Of a DNA stretch of 64,000 bases, positions 2,810-43,241 are shown piece by piece (position 1 is the stretch's first letter; each line of letters starts with the position of its first letter). Source of the stretch: Acidobacteriaceae bacterium (lineage in GTDB: Bacteria; Acidobacteriota; Terriglobia; Terriglobales; Acidobacteriaceae); assembly GCA_028283655.1 (NCBI GenBank), contig JAPWKE010000001.1, forward strand, positions 25,082 to 89,081, given 5' to 3'. The position numbers and the translations under genes are program-made. The notes beneath the pieces were generated by a model. It made no database searches and was not told where the DNA came from. It was given only the letters and a program-made list of their open reading frames with translations.

Positions 2810-5002
2810 ATGAAGCAAGTGTCGCAGGGTCTGCGTAAGCAGATGTTGGCAGCGGTGTCTCTCACCGCAGCGGTAACTCTTTCTGGTTGTGCAATGGGGA
2901 ACCTGAACCTTTCGGGCGGTGCTGGAGGGGCGCAGAGCGTTGCGGTCAAGATGACCGGCCTCGTTCACGGTGGCCAGCAGCCCGTTTCCGGCTCAACGAT
3001 CGCGTTGATGACCATGGGAGCGACTGGATATGGCTCCGCAGGCAGCAACCTGATCCCGACGGGATCGTACGCCGTGGGTGGAGCCCCGGGCTGCTCGAGC
3101 GGTTCCTGCCAGACGACCGTTGTGACGGACGCAGGCGGCAACTTCACCATTACCGGGGACTACACCTGCCCGACGGCGAACCCGGCGGCACAGGTTTATC
3201 TGACCGCGACGGGCGGCAACCCCGGCCTGACGACGGGAACGAATAATGCGGCGATCAAGCTGGTGGCTCCGCTGGGTGCCTGCAATGCGCTGAGCAGCGC
3301 GACGACGGTTGTGGTGAACGAAGTGACGACGGCGGCGATGGCGTTTGCTGTGGGTCAGTTCTTCGGGACGCCGAGCAATGTGGACAACTTCGGCTCGACG
3401 GCGACGGCGCAGTCCGTGCTTGGCCTGAGCAACGCGATCGCGACGTACGGCAACCTTGTGGACCCGGCGAGCGGTATGCCGCTGGGTAGCAAGACGCTGA
3501 CTTCGGCGACTGGAACTGTCGTCGTTACGCCGGAGCAGGCCAAGCTGGCCTTGATTGCTGACATCCTGGCCGCTTGCGTGAACTCGACGGGGGTAAGCAG
3601 CTCGGAGTGCACGACCGTGTTTAGCGGTACGGCCGCCAGCGGGACGACGGTTACCGATACGCTGCAGGCTGCGGTGGAGATGAGCCTGAACCCGACGAGC
3701 ACGAACAACGGCACGTCCAGCATGGATGCGTTGTATGGCCTGGCCACGGCGACCTCGCCGTTTGTGGGCTATCGTCCGGCTTATGCGGAGCCGACGGATT
3801 GGACGCTGGGAGTTACCTACGGATCGAACAGCACGGTAAATACGTCCTACCTGATCACGAAGCCGGAGCATCTGGCGGTTGATTCGCAGGGCAATGTCTG
3901 GCTGGGCAATTATGCCGGCAGTGCGGCGACAGCAGGCAACAGCCTGACGAAGCTGAGCGGCGGAGCGAGCAGTGCTCCCGGAACCCCGCTGGCCCAGGCG
4001 CTGGTCGGTGTACAGACGGGCATTCAGTATGTGGCGATCGATCCTTCGGACAACGTCTGGTCGCCGCAGTATTACAGCGCGACCGGCACAACGGGTGGCG
4101 GAAGCTCGGTGGTGGAGTACACGCCCGCCGGTGTGACGAACACCTTCACGACAGGAGCTGCGCCTGACACGATCACCTTCGATGGCGCAGGCAATGCCTT
4201 CATTCTCGAGCCTTCCTACAAGGGCGCGGGTGAGTTGGATGAGTTGGCATACGGAGCCGCTTCGGGAGCGACGGCCAACGTAATCGCGACTGGTATCACC
4301 ACGGATTACTCGACTATCGGCATCGACAGCAACTTCACGATTTACATCAGTGGCGGTGGCTCGGCGACGACCGGTACCGGAACCTCGGGCTTCGATGGCA
4401 TCTGGGAGTTTGCCAAGACCGCTTCGACGACGACGGGCTACCCGAGCACGCCGACCGGTGCTGCTGTGGGCACGGCGCTTTCGCCGTACCAGACGGTTGC
4501 GGGTGTCACTGAACCGGAACCTCTGGCTATCGATGGCAGCAACAACGTCTGGTTTGGCAACTACGGCAAGTCGACGCTGGGTGCGGTTTCAGCCACGACG
4601 ACAGGAACGTTTCAGGCTCTGCAGGGCTCGCCGTTTACGACGACGAACCTTACGGCTCCTGAGCAGATCATCTTCGACGGCGACGGACATCTTTGGTCGA
4701 CTGAAGCGAATGCGAGCGGCAATGTGATGGAGTACACGGCGGATGGTGTTGCGATGCATCCGGTCGGGACGTCGATTGCGACCACTGGCTTTGTGCATAC
4801 TTATGCTGAGCCCTATGGGATCGCTATCGATCCTTCGGGCAATGTCTGGGTGGGCAACTATGCCACCGGCGCTGCTGCCACGGCGAGCGTGCTGGGCTTT
4901 GTGACGGAGATTGTCGGTGCTGCGGCCCCGACGATTACGCCGCTTGCTGCTCAACTGCCAACCACAGCGGGTGGAACCAACCGCACGGCAACTCGCCCGT
5001 AA
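2810..5002 (+). CDS. lipoprotein with beta-propeller (NHL-like) repeats
   Basis: Track ORF 2645..5002, trimmed to ATG 2810 (GGGAG at 2799-2803). This gives MKQVSQGLRKQMLAAVSLTAAVTLSGC, a signal peptide plus lipobox. The body has repeated GNVW(V/L/F)GNY blades. Paralog of 10288..12345. Confidence 0.85.
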   Translation: MKQVSQGLRKQMLAAVSLTAAVTLSGCAMGNLNLSGGAGGAQSVAVKMTGLVHGGQQPVSGSTIALMTMGATGYGSAGSNLIPTGSYAVGGAPGCSSGSCQTTVVTDAGGNFTITGDYTCPTANPAAQVYLTATGGNPGLTTGTNNAAIKLVAPLGACNALSSATTVVVNEVTTAAMAFAVGQFFGTPSNVDNFGSTATAQSVLGLSNAIATYGNLVDPASGMPLGSKTLTSATGTVVVTPEQAKLALIADILAACVNSTGVSSSECTTVFSGTAASGTTVTDTLQAAVEMSLNPTSTNNGTSSMDALYGLATATSPFVGYRPAYAEPTDWTLGVTYGSNSTVNTSYLITKPEHLAVDSQGNVWLGNYAGSAATAGNSLTKLSGGASSAPGTPLAQALVGVQTGIQYVAIDPSDNVWSPQYYSATGTTGGGSSVVEYTPAGVTNTFTTGAAPDTITFDGAGNAFILEPSYKGAGELDELAYGAASGATANVIATGITTDYSTIGIDSNFTIYISGGGSATTGTGTSGFDGIWEFAKTASTTTGYPSTPTGAAVGTALSPYQTVAGVTEPEPLAIDGSNNVWFGNYGKSTLGAVSATTTGTFQALQGSPFTTTNLTAPEQIIFDGDGHLWSTEANASGNVMEYTADGVAMHPVGTSIATTGFVHTYAEPYGIAIDPSGNVWVGNYATGAAATASVLGFVTEIVGAAAPTITPLAAQLPTTAGGTNRTATRP

Positions 5003-5026
5003 CCCTACGGACGAGTTGTTTCCCAC

Positions 5027-5052
5027 GAAGCCCCGGCAGTCGCCGGGGTTTC
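5027..5052 (+). terminator. hairpin terminator after lipoprotein gene
   Basis: GAAGCCCCGGC-AGTC-GCCGGGGTTTC stem-loop with a weak T tract. Confidence 0.5.
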
Positions 5053-5158
5053 GTGCGTTTACAGGGAGGTGCTTTCGATTATCGTTCGGGATGGGGCTGG
5101 AGAGAACGAAGCTTATCGAAAATACGGCGGATCGTTGGGTTTGATCATCCAACCTTCC

Positions 5159-7279
5159 ATGAGTTCTTTGCTTTCCTGGCGTTCCTGTTCTGTTGCTTTT
5201 AAACGGCTCCGCGTTCACTTCGTGAAGCCTGTTTCTTTTTCCCTGCTGGGCGTTGGTGTTCTGCTGCCGCTCAGCGCATTTGCTGCGGCCCCGCAAGCGA
5301 CGACAGCAAAGACGCCTACCGCTGCGGGAGGTACGCAAACTGCTGGAGCGGAGTCCGGTTCTGCGGCCTCTCATGCGAGCCCGGCTTCTGCAAACCTGCA
5401 GCAGCGAATCGCTCAACTGCCTCCGCTGAGTAATACGGGCGTGGAGGTAAAGCAGCAGGGGGATCTCGTACGCAATCATCTGGGCGATGTGCTGCGCTTC
5501 TATCGCAGCAGCACGACGAGCGTTCAGAAGACAGGTGAGCCGAGCGACATTCTCTACCAGGACCAGATGCGCTCGCAGGTGACGAGCGTCGCGCAGTTTG
5601 CTTTTGAGGCGACGCGGAATGTAGCAGCACTGCTGTCGCACGTTAGCGGCGATGATGCCACGTTGCTGAAAGCCGGAGCCAGCGAGACGAAGGACTCCGG
5701 GGATGCTGCACGGATGACGCAGGCGAAGGTGCATGCGCAGGAGCGCATGGCGACGTTGCAGCAGCAGAAGCTGGCGCTCGCAGCGCAACTCGATCATGCT
5801 ACGGCGAAGACCCGTCCCGAACTGCTGCAGCAACAGGAGCAGGTGGAAGGCGGGTTGGAGCTGGCGCAGGCCACGTATGACGCGCTGAACCGCATTACAC
5901 GTTTTTCGAGTGCGCAGAGCGGGCACTCGGGGTTGATGGGCGATATTGATCACCTGGAGGCTTCGGCGCCGGAGCTCTCGTCTGACTCGGTGGGGAAGAC
6001 GGTTTCGACGGCCCCGGTTAACAGTCTGGCGGAGGCGCAACATGCTGGTCTGGTGACGCAGGCGAGTGCGTTGTTCGATCTGCTGTCCACGCGGCGCACC
6101 ATCGACGAACAGCTTGCCACGCTTGAACAGTTGCAGAAGCAGGTGCAGGCGTTGCGCACGCCGTTTCTGAAGGTGCTGCGCAGCACGATGAGCCAGGGCG
6201 AGAAGCTGACGCAGCAGAATGTCGATCTGAAGGCAACGCCGACTTCTGACGCGCAGGACCTTACGAGCACGCGCAAGCAATTCGACCAACTGACGAACAC
6301 GTTCCGCGTGATGGCGGATGCGACCTTCCCACTTTCGCAGGAGTCGCTGATGCTGGATTCGACGCGTGGGACGCTGACTGGCTGGCGGGTCGCGGTGGAT
6401 ACGGAGTACCGCAGTATTTTGCGGTCGCTGCTACTGCGCGTTGGGTCTATTGCGCTGGCCCTGATTCTGCTGGCGGTGATTGGGCACTTCTGGAACCACG
6501 CGACGCTGAAGTATGTGACGGACCTGCGCCGTCGTCGTCAGTTGCTGGTGGTGCGGCGGATGGTGCTTGGTTTTGCGGGAGGCATTGTTCTGCTCTTTGG
6601 CTTCATCACGCAGTTCAGTTCGCTGGCGACGTTTGCCGGTTTCATCTCGGCGGGCATTGCTGTTGGCCTGCAAACAATTCTGCTCTCGGTGGCGGCGTAC
6701 TTCTTCATCGTTGGACGCTATGGCGTGCGCGTGGGGGACCGCATCACGGTGGCCGGTGTTACCGGAACGGTAATCGAGGTGGGGATCGCTCGCTTCTACA
6801 TGATGGAGTTGGTGGGGACGGGAACGGAGTTGCACTCGACGGGACGCGTGGCTGTGTTTGCGAACTCCGTGCTCTTTCAGACAGGAACGCCGCTCTACAA
6901 GCAGCTTCCGGGAACAGAGTATGCGTGGCATGAGCTGACGGCAAAGCTGAAGCCGGATGCCGATGCGGACGCGGTGCTGAAGCATCTTTCGGCGATTGTC
7001 GAGAACGTCTACAACGGCTATAAGTCGGTGATCGACGCGCAGCAGAGGCAGATTGAGGCGTGGGCCGGGACGGCTGTCGATCCGCCTCGCATTGACTCGC
7101 ATATTCGCCTGATGGACGACGGCCTGCAGGTTGCGTTGCTGTTCCCGGTGCAGATTGCCGATGCCGCCGAGGCGGATGCGGCGATTGCTTCGGTGATTCT
7201 GAGCGAGTGGAAAGACGAAGGAGTGTTGCGTACGGGGCTGTCTGCTACGCCGGTGATCAAGGCCGCAGTAAAGAGCTAG
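5159..7279 (+). CDS. mechanosensitive ion channel (MscS family) with long coiled-coil N-terminal domain
   Basis: The C-terminal half has TM helices followed by GVRVGDRITVAGVTGTVIEVGIARFYMMEL, an MscS beta-domain signature. The N-terminal half is Q/A/L-rich. The start is uncertain: the track ORF opens at GTG 5069 and I chose ATG 5159. Confidence 0.85.
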   Translation: MSSLLSWRSCSVAFKRLRVHFVKPVSFSLLGVGVLLPLSAFAAAPQATTAKTPTAAGGTQTAGAESGSAASHASPASANLQQRIAQLPPLSNTGVEVKQQGDLVRNHLGDVLRFYRSSTTSVQKTGEPSDILYQDQMRSQVTSVAQFAFEATRNVAALLSHVSGDDATLLKAGASETKDSGDAARMTQAKVHAQERMATLQQQKLALAAQLDHATAKTRPELLQQQEQVEGGLELAQATYDALNRITRFSSAQSGHSGLMGDIDHLEASAPELSSDSVGKTVSTAPVNSLAEAQHAGLVTQASALFDLLSTRRTIDEQLATLEQLQKQVQALRTPFLKVLRSTMSQGEKLTQQNVDLKATPTSDAQDLTSTRKQFDQLTNTFRVMADATFPLSQESLMLDSTRGTLTGWRVAVDTEYRSILRSLLLRVGSIALALILLAVIGHFWNHATLKYVTDLRRRRQLLVVRRMVLGFAGGIVLLFGFITQFSSLATFAGFISAGIAVGLQTILLSVAAYFFIVGRYGVRVGDRITVAGVTGTVIEVGIARFYMMELVGTGTELHSTGRVAVFANSVLFQTGTPLYKQLPGTEYAWHELTAKLKPDADADAVLKHLSAIVENVYNGYKSVIDAQQRQIEAWAGTAVDPPRIDSHIRLMDDGLQVALLFPVQIADAAEADAAIASVILSEWKDEGVLRTGLSATPVIKAAVKS

Positions 7280-7385
7280 GCGGCACAGACAGTGTCGTTT
7301 CAGCGTAAAGATAAGGGGAGGAGCGCCCATACTGTCCTCAGGAGACGCACCCTCGCTCACTCCCCAACCCTTATGACGGGGGATG

Positions 7386-7414
7386 TTGAATGTGGTTTAC
7401 GAGTCAGGTGTAAT
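7386..7414 (+). promoter_or_regulatory. candidate sigma70-type promoter (TTGAAT-N17-TGTAAT)
   Basis: TTGAAT at 7386-7391, a 17-nt spacer, then TGTAAT at 7409-7414. It lies about 64 nt upstream of the micro-ORF ATG. Confidence 0.35.
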
Positions 7415-7477
7415 GTTTTTTCTCTGCGTGCGTTTTCCTTGTAGAACGGCTTCTGCCGTGAGCGAAAGGAGATTGCC

Positions 7478-7549
7478 ATGACGCCGAAGTGCAACTGCCC
7501 CGAGTGTGAGTGCGTGGAATGCCGCTGCATCGAATGCCCTTGCTGCTAG
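7478..7549 (+). CDS. 23-aa cysteine-rich micro-protein MTPKCNCPECECVECRCIECPCC (metallothionein-like, or a polycysteine leader)
   Basis: AAGGAG at 7466-7471 sits 6 nt before ATG 7478, and the stop TAG is at 7547-7549. Nine Cys are arranged with (CxCxx) periodicity, and 8 of the 9 Cys codons are TGC. The ORF is too short to appear in the ORF track. Confidence 0.55.
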   Translation: MTPKCNCPECECVECRCIECPCC

Positions 7550-7565
7550 CTCCAATGAGAAGATG

Positions 7566-7603
7566 CGCTGGCGTACTCGAGTGCGCCAGCGTTTGAGGTT
7601 TTG
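7566..7603 (+). terminator. hairpin plus T-rich tail between micro-ORF and sigma gene (terminator/attenuator)
   Basis: CGCTGGCGTAC (7566-7576) pairs with GTGCGCCAGCG (7581-7591). It is followed by TTTGAGGTTTTG. The GAGG within that tail may also serve as the SD for ATG 7609. Confidence 0.5.
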
Positions 7604-7608
7604 TCACC

Positions 7609-8172
7609 ATGCCCCCAAGCGCGCTGGAAACGCTTCTGGAACGGCGAGAGCGTTTTCTTGGCTTTATCGCTCGCCGCGTCTCGAACCACGAACTTGCCGA
7701 AGATATTCTGCAGGCGGCGTACATGCGGGCGCTGGAGAAGGCGCCTACTGGTACGGACCAGGAGTCGATTGTGGCCTGGTTCTTCAGCGTTCTGCGGCAC
7801 GCGATTATCGATCACTATCGTCGGCGGCATACAGAAGCTGCGGCGATGGAGCGGTTGCTGTTCGAACTTGGGCCGGATGAGCCTGTGGTTGCGGACAGTT
7901 CGGCACGGAGGTTTGTGTGCGGATGCATCGAGCGGGTTCTGCCGTCCCTGCGGCCAGCGTATGCCGAGCTTTTGAGCGAGGTGGATCTGGCGGAGACGCC
8001 CCTGACGCAGTTTGCGCTGGCGCATAACCTGACCCCGGGAAACGCCGCTGTGCGAGCGCATCGCGCACGTGCGGCGCTGCGGAGAGAGCTGGCAAAGACG
8101 TGTGGATCGTGTTCGATACACGCGTGTCTGGATTGCGTGTGCAAGCAGCCTCTGCCGGCGCTGGGTGTCTAA
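7609..8172 (+). CDS. ECF sigma factor with Cys-rich C-terminal extension (CorE-like)
   Basis: Sigma70 region 2 (DILQAAYMRALEK..WFFSVLRHAIIDHYRRR) and region 4 (YAELLSEVDLAETPLTQFALAHNLTPGNAAVRAHRARAALRREL) are present. There is a linker CxC (FVCGCIE) and a terminal CGSCSIHACLDCVC. No anti-sigma gene is adjacent. Confidence 0.85.
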   Translation: MPPSALETLLERRERFLGFIARRVSNHELAEDILQAAYMRALEKAPTGTDQESIVAWFFSVLRHAIIDHYRRRHTEAAAMERLLFELGPDEPVVADSSARRFVCGCIERVLPSLRPAYAELLSEVDLAETPLTQFALAHNLTPGNAAVRAHRARAALRRELAKTCGSCSIHACLDCVCKQPLPALGV

Positions 8173-8184
8173 TTTGAAGAACGG

Positions 8185-9591
8185 ATGAGAATGAAGAAGC
8201 AGTATGTTGTTCTGGCAGGCGTTTGTGTCGTTAGCTCGCTGGCGACGCTGCACGCACAGTCATCACAGGTGATGACGGCGCATACGTTGCGCGAAGCGGT
8301 GTTGCAGCATGGGTCTTCGGGCACGAGCGTAGAGCCGCCGTCTACCCCTGTACCGATGTGGATGGGAGTGCGCTCCGGCTGGACGCTGATGCTGCATGGC
8401 AACGCGTTTGTGGCGAACGATCAGCAGCAGGCCGAGAGTCATCGCGGCCGTGATGGATGGTTTTCGACCAACTGGATTATGCCTATGGCGCAGCGGAAGC
8501 TTGGGCCGGGGCAGTTGACGGTGCGGGCGATGTTTTCGGCGGAGCCGGGGACGATGCAGCAGCGGGCCTATCCTGAGATCTTTCAGCAGGGCGAGACGGC
8601 GTATGGCAATCCGATCGTGGATGGGCAGCATCCGCACGCGTTCTTTATGGAAGTGGGCGCGCTCTACGACATCAAGATGGGCAAGGATGCTTTGCTGAGC
8701 TTTTACGTCGCGCCGGTGGGCGATCCGGCGATTGGGCCGACGGCGTATCCGCACCGTCAGTCGGCGAGCGAAGACCCGATTGCGGCTCTGGGACATCACC
8801 AGGAAGACTCGACGCACATTGCGTACAACGTGCTGACCGGGGGGCTGACGTACAAGTGGGTGCGCGCGGAGCTCTCGGGGTTTCATGGCGGTGAGCCGGG
8901 GGAGGCGCACTGGCACTTCGAGTCTTCGGCGAACGGGCTGGCGGTGGACTCGGTTTCGACGCGGCTGACGGTGGCTCCGACGGCGGATTGGACGGCGCAG
9001 TACTCGTTCGCGCACATTGCGTCGCCGGAGGCGTTGTATCCGCAGGAAGACCAGCAGAGGCAGACGGCGAGCGTGATGTATCACCATACGTTCCGCACGG
9101 AGGCTGCGCCGAGGATGGGCGGCGCGTCGATGCAAGGGACGTCGATGCAAAGTTCGATGGCAGGGATGGATATGAGCGGAGCGTCGATGAAGATGACGCC
9201 GCAGCCGCTGGAAGACCTGTCGATGACGGCGGTGTGGGGCCGGACACGGTCGCTGGACGCGGACGCGAGCAAGGAGAACAGCTATCTGCTGGAGGCGCTG
9301 TATCGCTTCCGCGGCCGGAACTACGTGTGGACACGCATGGAGAATGCGGGACGTTCGAACGAGTTGCTACTTGCGCCCGGAACGCCGCTGCCTGTGGGGT
9401 TCCACGAAAGCCCGATCGGGCATGTGGCCGCGTTCAGCTTCGGATATGACCGCGATTATGCGCTTGGGAAGCACATTCTGGCGGCGCCGGGAGCGCAGTT
9501 CACGGTGTATCGGACGCCGTCTCTGCTGACGTCGACGTATGGTTCTACGCCGACGGCAGAGGTGTTCTTTGTAAGGTTTCGGGTACGGTAG
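8185..9591 (+). CDS. secreted Met/His-rich protein, probable outer-membrane beta-barrel
   Basis: Signal peptide MRMKKQYVVLAGVCVVSSLATLHAQS. A Met-rich insert MGGASMQGTSMQSSMAGMDMSGASMKM is encoded at nt 9115-9195. His clusters include HPHAFF, GHHQEDSTH, HWHFE and MYHHTF. The rest has an alternating beta-strand-like sequence. The gene starts 12 nt after the sigma gene stop. Confidence 0.8.
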   Translation: MRMKKQYVVLAGVCVVSSLATLHAQSSQVMTAHTLREAVLQHGSSGTSVEPPSTPVPMWMGVRSGWTLMLHGNAFVANDQQQAESHRGRDGWFSTNWIMPMAQRKLGPGQLTVRAMFSAEPGTMQQRAYPEIFQQGETAYGNPIVDGQHPHAFFMEVGALYDIKMGKDALLSFYVAPVGDPAIGPTAYPHRQSASEDPIAALGHHQEDSTHIAYNVLTGGLTYKWVRAELSGFHGGEPGEAHWHFESSANGLAVDSVSTRLTVAPTADWTAQYSFAHIASPEALYPQEDQQRQTASVMYHHTFRTEAAPRMGGASMQGTSMQSSMAGMDMSGASMKMTPQPLEDLSMTAVWGRTRSLDADASKENSYLLEALYRFRGRNYVWTRMENAGRSNELLLAPGTPLPVGFHESPIGHVAAFSFGYDRDYALGKHILAAPGAQFTVYRTPSLLTSTYGSTPTAEVFFVRFRVR

Positions 9592-42206: not shown

Positions 42207-42254
42207 TTTGCATAACGTGAAATCTCTTGTTCGTGAGGCTCCGAGCTAACCCGC

Positions 42255-43241
42255 TTACTGCTGCTGCTGGGCTTGCTGTAGCTGCTTCAGGCTTGGTGCT
42301 GGCTGCTCCGGAAGTGCTTGCGCTTTCTCCACCAGGATGACCCAGTCTTCCGGTACCGGGAGTTCGCGGTCAAGTGATGGCGTTCCCTGGCTAGGCTCGA
42401 CGCGTACGGCTACAGAGAGTTCGCTCTTCGTGCGGCCGCGGTAGATGCCGTGCGTTGGAGGAACGTCGGAGTAGTCGCGGCCGATCGCTGTGCGGATATG
42501 GCGGTCGCCGGCGACAAGGTTGTTCGTCGGGTCGAAGCCGACCCATCCAAGCTCCGGCAGGAGGCACTCGATCCAGGCGTGCGTTGCCTGATCGTCGGAG
42601 CGATCCTTGAACTGGGCGCCGTGATAGAGGTAGCCCGAGACGTAGCGGCAGGGGATCCGCAGGTGGGTGCGGACCAACGTGATCATGACGTGCGCAAAGT
42701 CCTGGCAAACGCCCGCGCGCGCGATCAGCGCTTCGTCGATAGGCGAATCGGCGGTTGTCGATTTCGGCTTGTAGTCGAAGGCGCGGTAGAGCTGTTCGTT
42801 GAGCCGGTGCAGGGTCGTCAGAGGATCGTCGGAACGGTCCAGCTTCAGCTCCACAGAGAGCTTTTCCAGCTCTTCCGTCGAGGTGCAGAACTGGCTGGGG
42901 AGCAACATCTCCCAGAAGTCGCCTGCCTGCACCATGGCGTCGATCTCGTCCCACGAGCCCGGCGGCAGAGATGCCGGGACTTCTGGGTGCGGGGTCATCT
43001 CGACGATCGCTTCGGCCACGATCACAAGCTGCGCATGCTGGCCTGGAATGTCGAAGTGATGAATGTGGTTGTTCAGGTGGTCGCGGTAGCTGAAGACTCG
43101 GCAACGCGGCGAGACGGCGAGGTGGAACGTGAGGCAGCGTTGCTGTGCATCGGAGCGCGGATGCATCCGCGTCTCCATAATGCTTTCGCTCACGGGCGTC
43201 TTATACGCAAACTTGGTCAGATGTCGGATCGAGTAGTACAT
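42255..43241 (-). CDS. transglutaminase-family protein
   Basis: MYYSIRHLTKFAYKTPV is a typical N-terminus for this family. The Cys-His-Asp core is GVCQDFAHVMITL ... THAWIECLLPELGWVGFDPTN. GGAG lies 7 nt before ATG 43241. Confidence 0.88.
   Translation of the reverse strand: MYYSIRHLTKFAYKTPVSESIMETRMHPRSDAQQRCLTFHLAVSPRCRVFSYRDHLNNHIHHFDIPGQHAQLVIVAEAIVEMTPHPEVPASLPPGSWDEIDAMVQAGDFWEMLLPSQFCTSTEELEKLSVELKLDRSDDPLTTLHRLNEQLYRAFDYKPKSTTADSPIDEALIARAGVCQDFAHVMITLVRTHLRIPCRYVSGYLYHGAQFKDRSDDQATHAWIECLLPELGWVGFDPTNNLVAGDRHIRTAIGRDYSDVPPTHGIYRGRTKSELSVAVRVEPSQGTPSLDRELPVPEDWVILVEKAQALPEQPAPSLKQLQQAQQQQ

Follow-up and report, generated by a model that had tools for sequence, protein, structure and literature searches.

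Introduction

In the SmtB-SmtA circuit and in the eukaryotic ACE1/MTF-1 circuits, a metal sensor is paired with the metallothionein that it controls, sometimes divergently, and the two form a sensor-buffer feedback. The copper metallothionein (Cu-MT) of Neurospora crassa consists of 25 amino acids (aa), seven of them Cys, and mycobacterial MymT is likewise a small copper thionein. In this study, we describe a locus in a 64,000-nucleotide (nt) stretch of an Acidobacteriaceae genome (contig JAPWKE010000001.1, positions 25,082 to 89,081; hereafter, the window), in which the gene of a CorE-like extracytoplasmic function (ECF) sigma factor is preceded by a micro-open reading frame (micro-ORF) for a Cys-rich, metallothionein-like peptide and followed by the gene of a predicted outer-membrane barrel protein.

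Sigma factors of the CorE type (group ECF44) are defined by a CxC motif and a C-terminal Cys-rich domain (CRD) (PMC4937300, PMC8999054), and the group is now merged into ECF238 (PMC7826278). Both Cys motifs are essential in CorE (copper) and CorE2 (Cd/Zn) of Myxococcus xanthus (PMC4937300). By description, these two proteins are lone sensors that control nearby efflux pumps, oxidases, and ATPases, and reviews present CorE-like factors as lone proteins (PMC6851896). Acidobacterial members of ECF44 have already been noted (PMC4937300). In the literature that was searched, no description was found that links metallothioneins or small Cys-rich ORFs with ECF/CorE sigma factors or with Acidobacteria.

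The sigma factor of the window has the same CxC motif and CRD as CorE and CorE2. Unlike them as described, it has as its putative linked target an unannotated micro-ORF under a strictly conserved promoter of its own, and its neighbourhood is free of efflux genes. The conserved core of the locus is two genes, the micro-ORF and the sigma factor gene, plus cis elements, and not a module of four parts. On balance, we lean towards reading this core as a metal-responsive cassette, in which a CorE-like sigma factor has a metallothionein-like micropeptide gene as its invariably linked target. By computation, we determined the anatomy and conservation of the locus, the coding selection on the micro-ORF, the linkage of the promoter in both orientations, the ECF44 signatures of the sigma factor, and the fold of the barrel.

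Results

Cys-rich micro-ORF upstream of the sigma factor gene

The initial annotation of the locus had named five parts, namely a promoter, a nine-Cys micro-protein with a strong Shine-Dalgarno sequence, a terminator-like hairpin, a sigma factor, and a Met/His-rich envelope protein. Direct reading of the sequence found all of them, and all lie on the + strand. The micro-ORF (7478-7549, +) encodes the 23-aa peptide MTPKCNCPECECVECRCIECPCC, which contains nine Cys and no aromatic residue, and is preceded by the Shine-Dalgarno sequence AAGGAG (7466-7471, +), 6 nt 5' of the ATG. The sigma factor gene follows at 7609-8172 (+).

A metagenome scan anchored on the sigma factor yielded 71 usable loci, in which the N-terminus is complete and the upstream sequence reaches at least 120 nt. 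A Cys-rich micro-ORF adjoined the sigma factor gene in 45 of them; in 37 loci it was co-directional (20-56 aa, ATG start) and in eight divergent (27-58 aa). Where the sigma factor was at least 55% identical, the micro-ORF was present in 11 of 11 metagenomic loci. It also lay directly 5' of the sigma factor gene in all five sigma loci of a genome scan anchored on the barrel protein (e.g., MTTKCTCPCGPECNCPDCTCPCC), in cultured Bryocella elongata, and in locus L163, and the peptide-profile match P0391 sits directly upstream of a sigma factor with a CxC motif and a CRD. The proposed synteny of micro-ORF and CorE-like sigma factor was thus borne out in relatives; the barrel gene joins them in a subset only. 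The layout of micro-ORF, promoter motif, and hairpin is far from chance and recurs in dozens of independent loci.

In comparisons of same-length peptide pairs, substitutions at the first, second, and third codon positions numbered 149, 142, and 306, and Cys was kept across 61 TGC/TGT switches in the family. The ATG is conserved in the homologues, and (A)AGGAG or AGGA occupies the same position in nearly all of them. Because of the third-position excess, the TGC/TGT switches, and the conserved ATG and Shine-Dalgarno sequence, the substitution pattern is that expected of a translated gene under coding-type selection. Gene callers put no gene in the gap that holds the micro-ORF. In B. elongata (locus L161), the end of the micro-ORF (4915-5010) is overlapped by the annotated start of the sigma factor gene (5001-5615), and database sigma proteins such as P0126, P0151, P0162, and P0225 carry 15-45 extra N-terminal residues. 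These extended starts were probably mis-called owing to the unrecognised micro-ORF.

The peptides share the family core C-x-C-G-P-x-C-x-C-(G)-P-x-C-x-C. The median peptide has 27 aa and 28% Cys, 37 of 39 peptides lack an aromatic residue, and the family ranges from 20 to 58 aa in length and from 6 to 14 in Cys number. By composition, metallothioneins are small, have no aromatics, and contain Cys, arranged in CxC/CxxC arrays, at more than about 15-30%; the window peptide, with 39% Cys in 23 aa and no F, W, or Y, has this composition. Ten representative peptides, including that of the window, had no match in Pfam or NCBIfam at E-values up to 10, and an exact look-up of 20 peptides in a collection of 15 billion proteins found none of them. 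When 5.8 billion proteins were searched with a profile, only nine weak, unnamed matches resulted, and several of these have spurious N-terminal extensions. On the short contig L170 (1.5 kb, high GC), a 64-aa peptide with repeated CxCGPDCQCGP units (836-1030) lies by an aldo-keto-reductase-like gene, with no sigma factor gene alongside. Genes for related Cys-rich peptides may therefore also stand alone.

The peptide could be a regulatory partner of the sigma factor, either a mini anti-sigma factor or a metal-exchange co-sensor that shares or competes for the metal of the CxC motif and CRD, and not a bulk buffer; it would in this way set how active the sigma factor is. The tight pairing with CorE-like sigma factors over 39-66% sigma identity would agree with such a role, as would the usual co-transcription of ECF sigma factors with a regulator and the CxC-type motifs that the peptide and the CRD have in common; no conventional anti-sigma gene adjoins the sigma factor gene. 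However, CorE and CorE2 need no anti-sigma factor and respond directly to metal (PMC3107203, PMC4937300), and, from the hairpin layout described below, the peptide would be expected to far outnumber the sigma factor. Freely varying length and Cys number would also be unusual for a specific protein interface. Because of this variation and the related peptide on the short contig without a sigma factor gene, a buffer is favoured over a specific partner, and we regard the latter as unlikely.

Promoter of the micro-ORF

ECF promoters typically have a -35/-10 pair with fixed spacing and a -10 element of the CGT type. In 38 of 39 co-directional loci, the motif TGTAA(T/G)-N16-CGTC precedes the ATG of the micro-ORF by 49-81 nt, and the single exception is a locus without upstream sequence. 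Variation was limited to a 15-nt spacer in one locus and to CGTT or CGTG in a few. All eight divergent micro-ORFs carry TGTAAK-N16-CGTC on their own strand and the sigma factor genes of these loci do not; the motif is also absent 5' of sigma factor genes that lack a micro-ORF. The chance expectation of the strict motif is 0.1 per 64-kb window, and the copy in the window (7409-7434, +; TGTAAT at 7409-7414, a 16-nt spacer, and CGTT at 7431-7434) is the sole relaxed match there.

Because of its fixed 16-nt pairing with a downstream CGTC or CGTT, TGTAAT is assigned, from sequence conservation, as the -35 element of an ECF-type promoter. The initial annotation had taken the same hexamer as the -10 element of a sigma-70 promoter, with TTGAAT (7386-7391, +) 17 nt upstream as its partner, and had proposed constitutive peptide output. 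A sigma-70 consensus scan found no site, owing to the G at position 2 of the second hexamer, and homologous loci do not conserve TTGAAT, so this assignment was abandoned. An ECF-type promoter predicts peptide output that would be sigma-dependent and inducible, not constitutive. Autoregulation of the sigma factor, also proposed at the outset, would fit the co-directional layout only; in the eight divergent loci, the promoter serves the micro-ORF alone. In a distant locus (L142, 3862-3979) with a 56-aa, 14-Cys peptide, a second TGTAAT-N16-CGTC lies between the micro-ORF and the sigma factor gene, which would give the sigma factor a promoter of its own.

Hairpins of the micro-ORF transcript

The spacer between the micro-ORF and the sigma factor gene (7550-7608) holds a GC-rich hairpin (7565-7592, +) with a 12-bp stem and the loop UCGA, followed by UUGAGGUUUUG. 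The spacer folds at -27.2 kcal/mol (z = -4.2), and none of 200 shuffled sequences folded as well. A terminator scan scored the hairpin as terminator-like, though with fewer base pairs in the stem. In essentially all co-directional loci, this spacer holds a strong hairpin, the sequence of which is unrelated; of 20 loci tested, 19 had z-scores between -2.7 and -7.8. The hairpin may terminate transcription leakily, stabilise the 3' end, or do both, and as a terminator it would attenuate read-through into the sigma factor gene.

A second hairpin, ACGGC-TTCT-GCCGT (7446-7459, +), lies in the 5' untranslated region (5'UTR), between the -10 element and the Shine-Dalgarno sequence. It keeps this position in most loci with differing stems (GACCGC/GCGGTC, GAACG/CGTTC); the median z-score over 33 loci was -2.3, and 24 of the 33 were below -1.5. 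The arms, in the window and in the equivalents in loci L009-L152, are semi-conserved and covarying. This element could stabilise the 5' end of the mRNA or act in the DNA as an inverted-repeat operator for some repressor. No Rfam family matched the region 7200-8300.

Nine Cys among 23 codons and a terminator-like hairpin 15 nt past the stop codon recall the layout of classical attenuators, in which case the micro-ORF would be a leader peptide whose Cys-codon translation reports the supply of Cys-tRNA or thiol, and the hairpin would attenuate transcription of the sigma factor gene. The eight divergent loci argue against such an attenuator, since the micro-ORF there retains the same promoter. The conserved non-Cys positions (G-P and P) and Cys spacing also speak against it, and minimum free energy folds gave one dominant hairpin, outside the ORF, with no antiterminator pairing evident. 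We consider a leader peptide very improbable.

CorE-like sigma factor

The 187-aa sigma factor matched Pfam Sigma70_r2 (1e-10) and, below the curated cut-off, Sigma70_r4_2 (1.7e-3). In NCBIfam, it scored 53.7 bits against sigma70-ECF (cut-off 42.9), and the best match, SigZ, was under its own cut-off. It holds sigma2 and sigma4 domains only, which is the domain content of ECF44/ECF238, and its 511 homologues belong mostly to Acidobacteriaceae. Alignment of 20 homologues (54-66% identity) revealed seven invariant Cys: two in the sigma2-sigma4 linker, forming the CxC motif C104-G-C106 (7918-7926, +), and five in the tail (C165, C168, C173, C176, and C178). The C-terminal sequence is CGSCSIHACLDCVCK, with the tail consensus CGxCSxHxCLDCxCK. 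This CRD (C165-x2-C168-x2-H171-x-C173-x2-C176-x-C178; 8101-8142, +) includes H171, which is at least 90% conserved. The protein has the CxC motif as well as the CRD with at least four conserved Cys that mark ECF44/ECF238, and it is a new member of a known family.

The tail spacing aligns with C173, C178, C181, and C183 of CorE2. The equivalent of CorE2 Cys174 is a near-invariant Ser here and Ala in the copper sensor CorE, and replacement of Cys174 by Ala changes CorE2's specificity from cadmium to copper. The Ser at this position hints weakly at a copper-type sensor.

Plasmid-borne relatives of the sigma factor (35-41% identity) have no micro-ORF and lie beside genes for a cation transporter, a P-type ATPase, and NikR. 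On a Ca. Manganitrophus plasmid (L167, CP114558.1), a 41%-identical CRD-type sigma factor gene without a micro-ORF is directly 3' of a cation-transporter gene and near genes for a P-type ATPase, nikR, and chromate resistance. On a Roseibium plasmid, a small annotated ORF 3' of a match to the promoter motif is not Cys-rich. The plasmid contexts support a metal role for the wider sigma family.

Cys-based sensors are often oxidant-responsive. The activity of CorE follows the redox state of copper (PMC8999054). The sigma factor could accordingly be a thiol or redox stress sensor that is activated by Cys oxidation, with the peptide as a sacrificial thiol buffer, and one related locus has AhpC/thioredoxin-type genes nearby. 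The characterised members, however, respond to metals, and oxidative stress alone was not the signal reported for them (PMC3107203, PMC4937300). Metals are also favoured by the plasmid metal-transport contexts and by the Met- and His-rich loops of the barrel; a redox sensor is improbable, and the module is probably metal-related.

Outer-membrane barrel protein and its linkage to the cassette

Only 12-18 nt separate the stop codon of the sigma factor gene from an optional third gene of the operon (8185-9591, +), which encodes a protein of 468 aa, or 466 aa from the database start at 8191. Its N-terminus, MKKQYVVLAGVCVVSSLATLHAQ, is hydrophobic and signal-peptide-like. An AlphaFold2 (AF2) model built with 120 sequences (predicted TM-score [pTM] 0.78) has 16 long antiparallel strands, and Foldseek matched it to OmpF, OmpC, Omp32, and OmpK36 (probability 1.0, TM-score 0.5-0.67) at 8-12% identity. 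With the signal peptide and 16-strand barrel of general porins, the Met/His-rich envelope protein of the initial annotation is read, from this model, as a predicted porin-like outer-membrane beta-barrel. It belongs to no Pfam or NCBIfam family (porin and CopB included), and a PDB sequence search gave nothing meaningful. Its family comprises more than 6000 matches at 52-76% identity, mostly from Acidobacteriaceae and all unnamed or "hypothetical", and forms 2363 clusters at 50% identity; the members include P0002-P0120 and P0241-P0390.

Three His motifs of the barrel are invariant (GQHPH, YPHR, and LGHHQEDSTH). The most conserved segments, FQQGETAYGxPIVDGQHPH and DPAIGPTAYPHRQSASEDPIAALGHHQEDSTH, fall in long low-confidence loops. 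A Met-rich insert, MGGASMQGTSMQSSMAGMDMSGASMKM (9114-9195, +), varies in length across the homologues and is always Met-rich (MxGMDM repeats); in the AF2 model, it sits between strands 10 and 11, with a low predicted local distance difference test (pLDDT) score. Strand counting back from the C-terminus would place it, at low confidence, in a periplasm-facing turn. In the copper-related outer-membrane protein PcoB (PcoB/CopB), a Met-rich sequence is attached to the barrel. The Met-rich segment described here is, in contrast, an internal loop and not an N-terminal tail, and it comes without a CopB Pfam match. The 16-strand fold is shared with the general porins OmpF, OmpC, and Omp32, and the invariant His-rich loops are unique with respect to both porins and PcoB/CopB.

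The genome scan anchored on the 468-aa protein gave 80 loci. The sigma factor gene lay beside the barrel gene in five, and two more carried the promoter alone. Downstream-gene ORF calls in the metagenomic loci were too noisy and were left out of the analysis. The barrel gene adjoins the cassette in the clade of the window and in L100, L117, and L121; the sigma factors of L117 and L121 are distant homologues, and the barrels encoded 3' of them are 38% and 48% identical. Granulicella sp. S156 and G. mallensis have no sigma factor gene next to the barrel gene, which in both carries a TGTAAG-N16-CGTC promoter itself. In some genomes, the same site in the chromosome (amidase ... yqeY) holds the micro-ORF and the sigma factor gene but no barrel gene. 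The link of the barrel to the cassette is facultative but recurrent, and the barrel is an optional partner. The fixed four-part module of the initial annotation was therefore not upheld, as the barrel gene also occurs without the sigma factor gene and the micro-ORF-sigma pair without the barrel gene.

At the same site, other genomes (L005, L020, L010, L017, and L018) have the amidase gene directly followed by the barrel gene, and in L005 and L020 the barrel start is immediately preceded by a residual GGTGTAAT, at about 5990-6090. It looks as if the micro-ORF-sigma cassette has a fixed place in the chromosome and varies there by insertion or deletion. Barrel orthologues of the Edaphobacter and Tunturiibacter type (L025, L029, L044, L046, L052, and L061) lack TGTAAT-N16-CGTC and share the element CG(C/T)ATCTGATT(T/C)C about 90-110 nt 5' of the barrel gene, which suggests a different regulator of the gene in these lineages.

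One operon with a small Cys-rich peptide, an ECF sigma factor, and a barrel with predicted metal-binding loops would also suit metal acquisition, as in methanobactin loci, which likewise have an ECF sigma factor. The peptide would then be an exported metallophore, or similar to a ribosomally synthesised and post-translationally modified peptide (RiPP), with the barrel as its channel or receptor. However, the peptide has no leader or signal sequence, neither modification enzymes of the MbnB/MbnC type nor an exporter were found within about 10 kb, and most micro-ORF-sigma loci lack the barrel gene and have housekeeping neighbours. An exported metallophore is thus quite improbable.

Flanking regions

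Of the two bounding genes proposed initially, the convergent yqeY downstream was confirmed by a solid match (1e-41); the upstream MscS match was weak and below the curated cut-offs of Pfam and NCBIfam. The surrounding 10 kb or so is of housekeeping character, with gyrB, dnaB, and genes for an L,D-transpeptidase and a D-Ala-D-Ala carboxypeptidase. As had been stated at the outset, no P1B-ATPase, multicopper oxidase, or Cus genes were found within about 10 kb of the locus, nor were metal efflux genes. A Cys-cluster scan of the window flagged a second Cys-rich frame at 42250-42444 (+), PAYCCCWACCSCF..., which has no start codon, lies under long ORFs on both strands, and is probably an out-of-frame artefact.

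Discussion

If the cassette is metal-responsive, as we favour, the sigma factor would bind metal through the linker CxC motif and the CRD. The CRD pattern and the Met-rich barrel loop would favour copper, with zinc and cadmium also possible. The metal-loaded sigma factor would take RNA polymerase to the TGTAAT-N16-CGTT promoter, and the short mRNA, with its 5' and 3' hairpins and strong Shine-Dalgarno sequence, would yield large amounts of the 23-aa peptide, which would sequester the metal as thiolate clusters. A fraction of the transcripts would pass the intercistronic hairpin, so that the sigma factor (positive autoregulation) and the barrel are expressed; the His-rich and Met-rich loops of the latter would probably handle the same metal in the envelope. 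Buffering by the peptide would finally lower the metal occupancy of the sigma factor and switch the system off (negative feedback).

Several observations weigh against such a cassette. No micro-ORF was present in 26 of the 71 sigma loci, and no sigma factor gene in 75 of the 80 barrel loci. The window peptide lacks the G-P of the family core, the -10 element of its promoter is CGTT and not CGTC, and the peptides fall outside the known metallothionein families (BmtA/SmtA and others; Pfam and NCBIfam profiles). U-tracts 3' of the intercistronic hairpin are short, interrupted, or weak in many loci, which makes termination there uncertain. CorE and CorE2 are reported as partly autoregulated only (PMC6851896). 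Finally, we infer that the sigma factor reads the micro-ORF promoter from the co-occurrence of the two.

Among described systems, the closest functional analogues are the SmtB-SmtA and ACE1/MTF-1 circuits, which pair a sensor gene with a metallothionein gene. The sensor described here is, in contrast to SmtB, an activating sigma factor and not an ArsR-type repressor, and the 20-58-aa peptides are unrelated to BmtA/SmtA, as judged by the lack of a Pfam or NCBIfam match. Like Neurospora Cu-MT and MymT, the peptides are very short, CxC-rich, free of aromatics, and probably Cu(I)-thiolate binding. No sequence homology to these two was detected, however, and the peptide of the window is the first cistron of a bacterial sigma operon.

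A broader proposal, which we hold tentatively and with less confidence, is that CorE-like sigma factors in general would form two-gene sensor-buffer units with widespread 20-58-aa metallothionein-like micropeptides of the core CxCGPxCxC(G)PxCxC. The sigma factor would transcribe the peptide gene from TGTAAT-N16-CGTC, the peptide would compete for the CRD metal or exchange it and thereby feed back on the sigma factor, and the hairpin-bracketed mini-mRNA would fix a high ratio of peptide to sigma factor.

New in this locus are a family of conserved, unannotated micropeptides, the promoter dedicated to it, the hairpins on either side, and the link to an uncharacterised barrel family. CorE-type sigma factors are the textbook example of sigma factors that sense metal unaided. 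Their targets are unknown in many soil bacteria, in which nothing metal-related is annotated nearby, and the micro-ORF supplies a candidate target. The promoter consensus can be used for regulon prediction, and the proposed feedback circuit is defined. The peptides are a candidate new family of bacterial metallothioneins, which are considered rare in bacteria, and the link to the cassette is the first functional lead for the barrel family of more than 6000 proteins. Being below the length limits of gene callers, the micropeptides illustrate how such genes go unannotated in Acidobacteriota, a dominant soil phylum. Our results suggest that "stand-alone" CorE-like sigma factors may have an overlooked, dedicated metallothionein-like partner.

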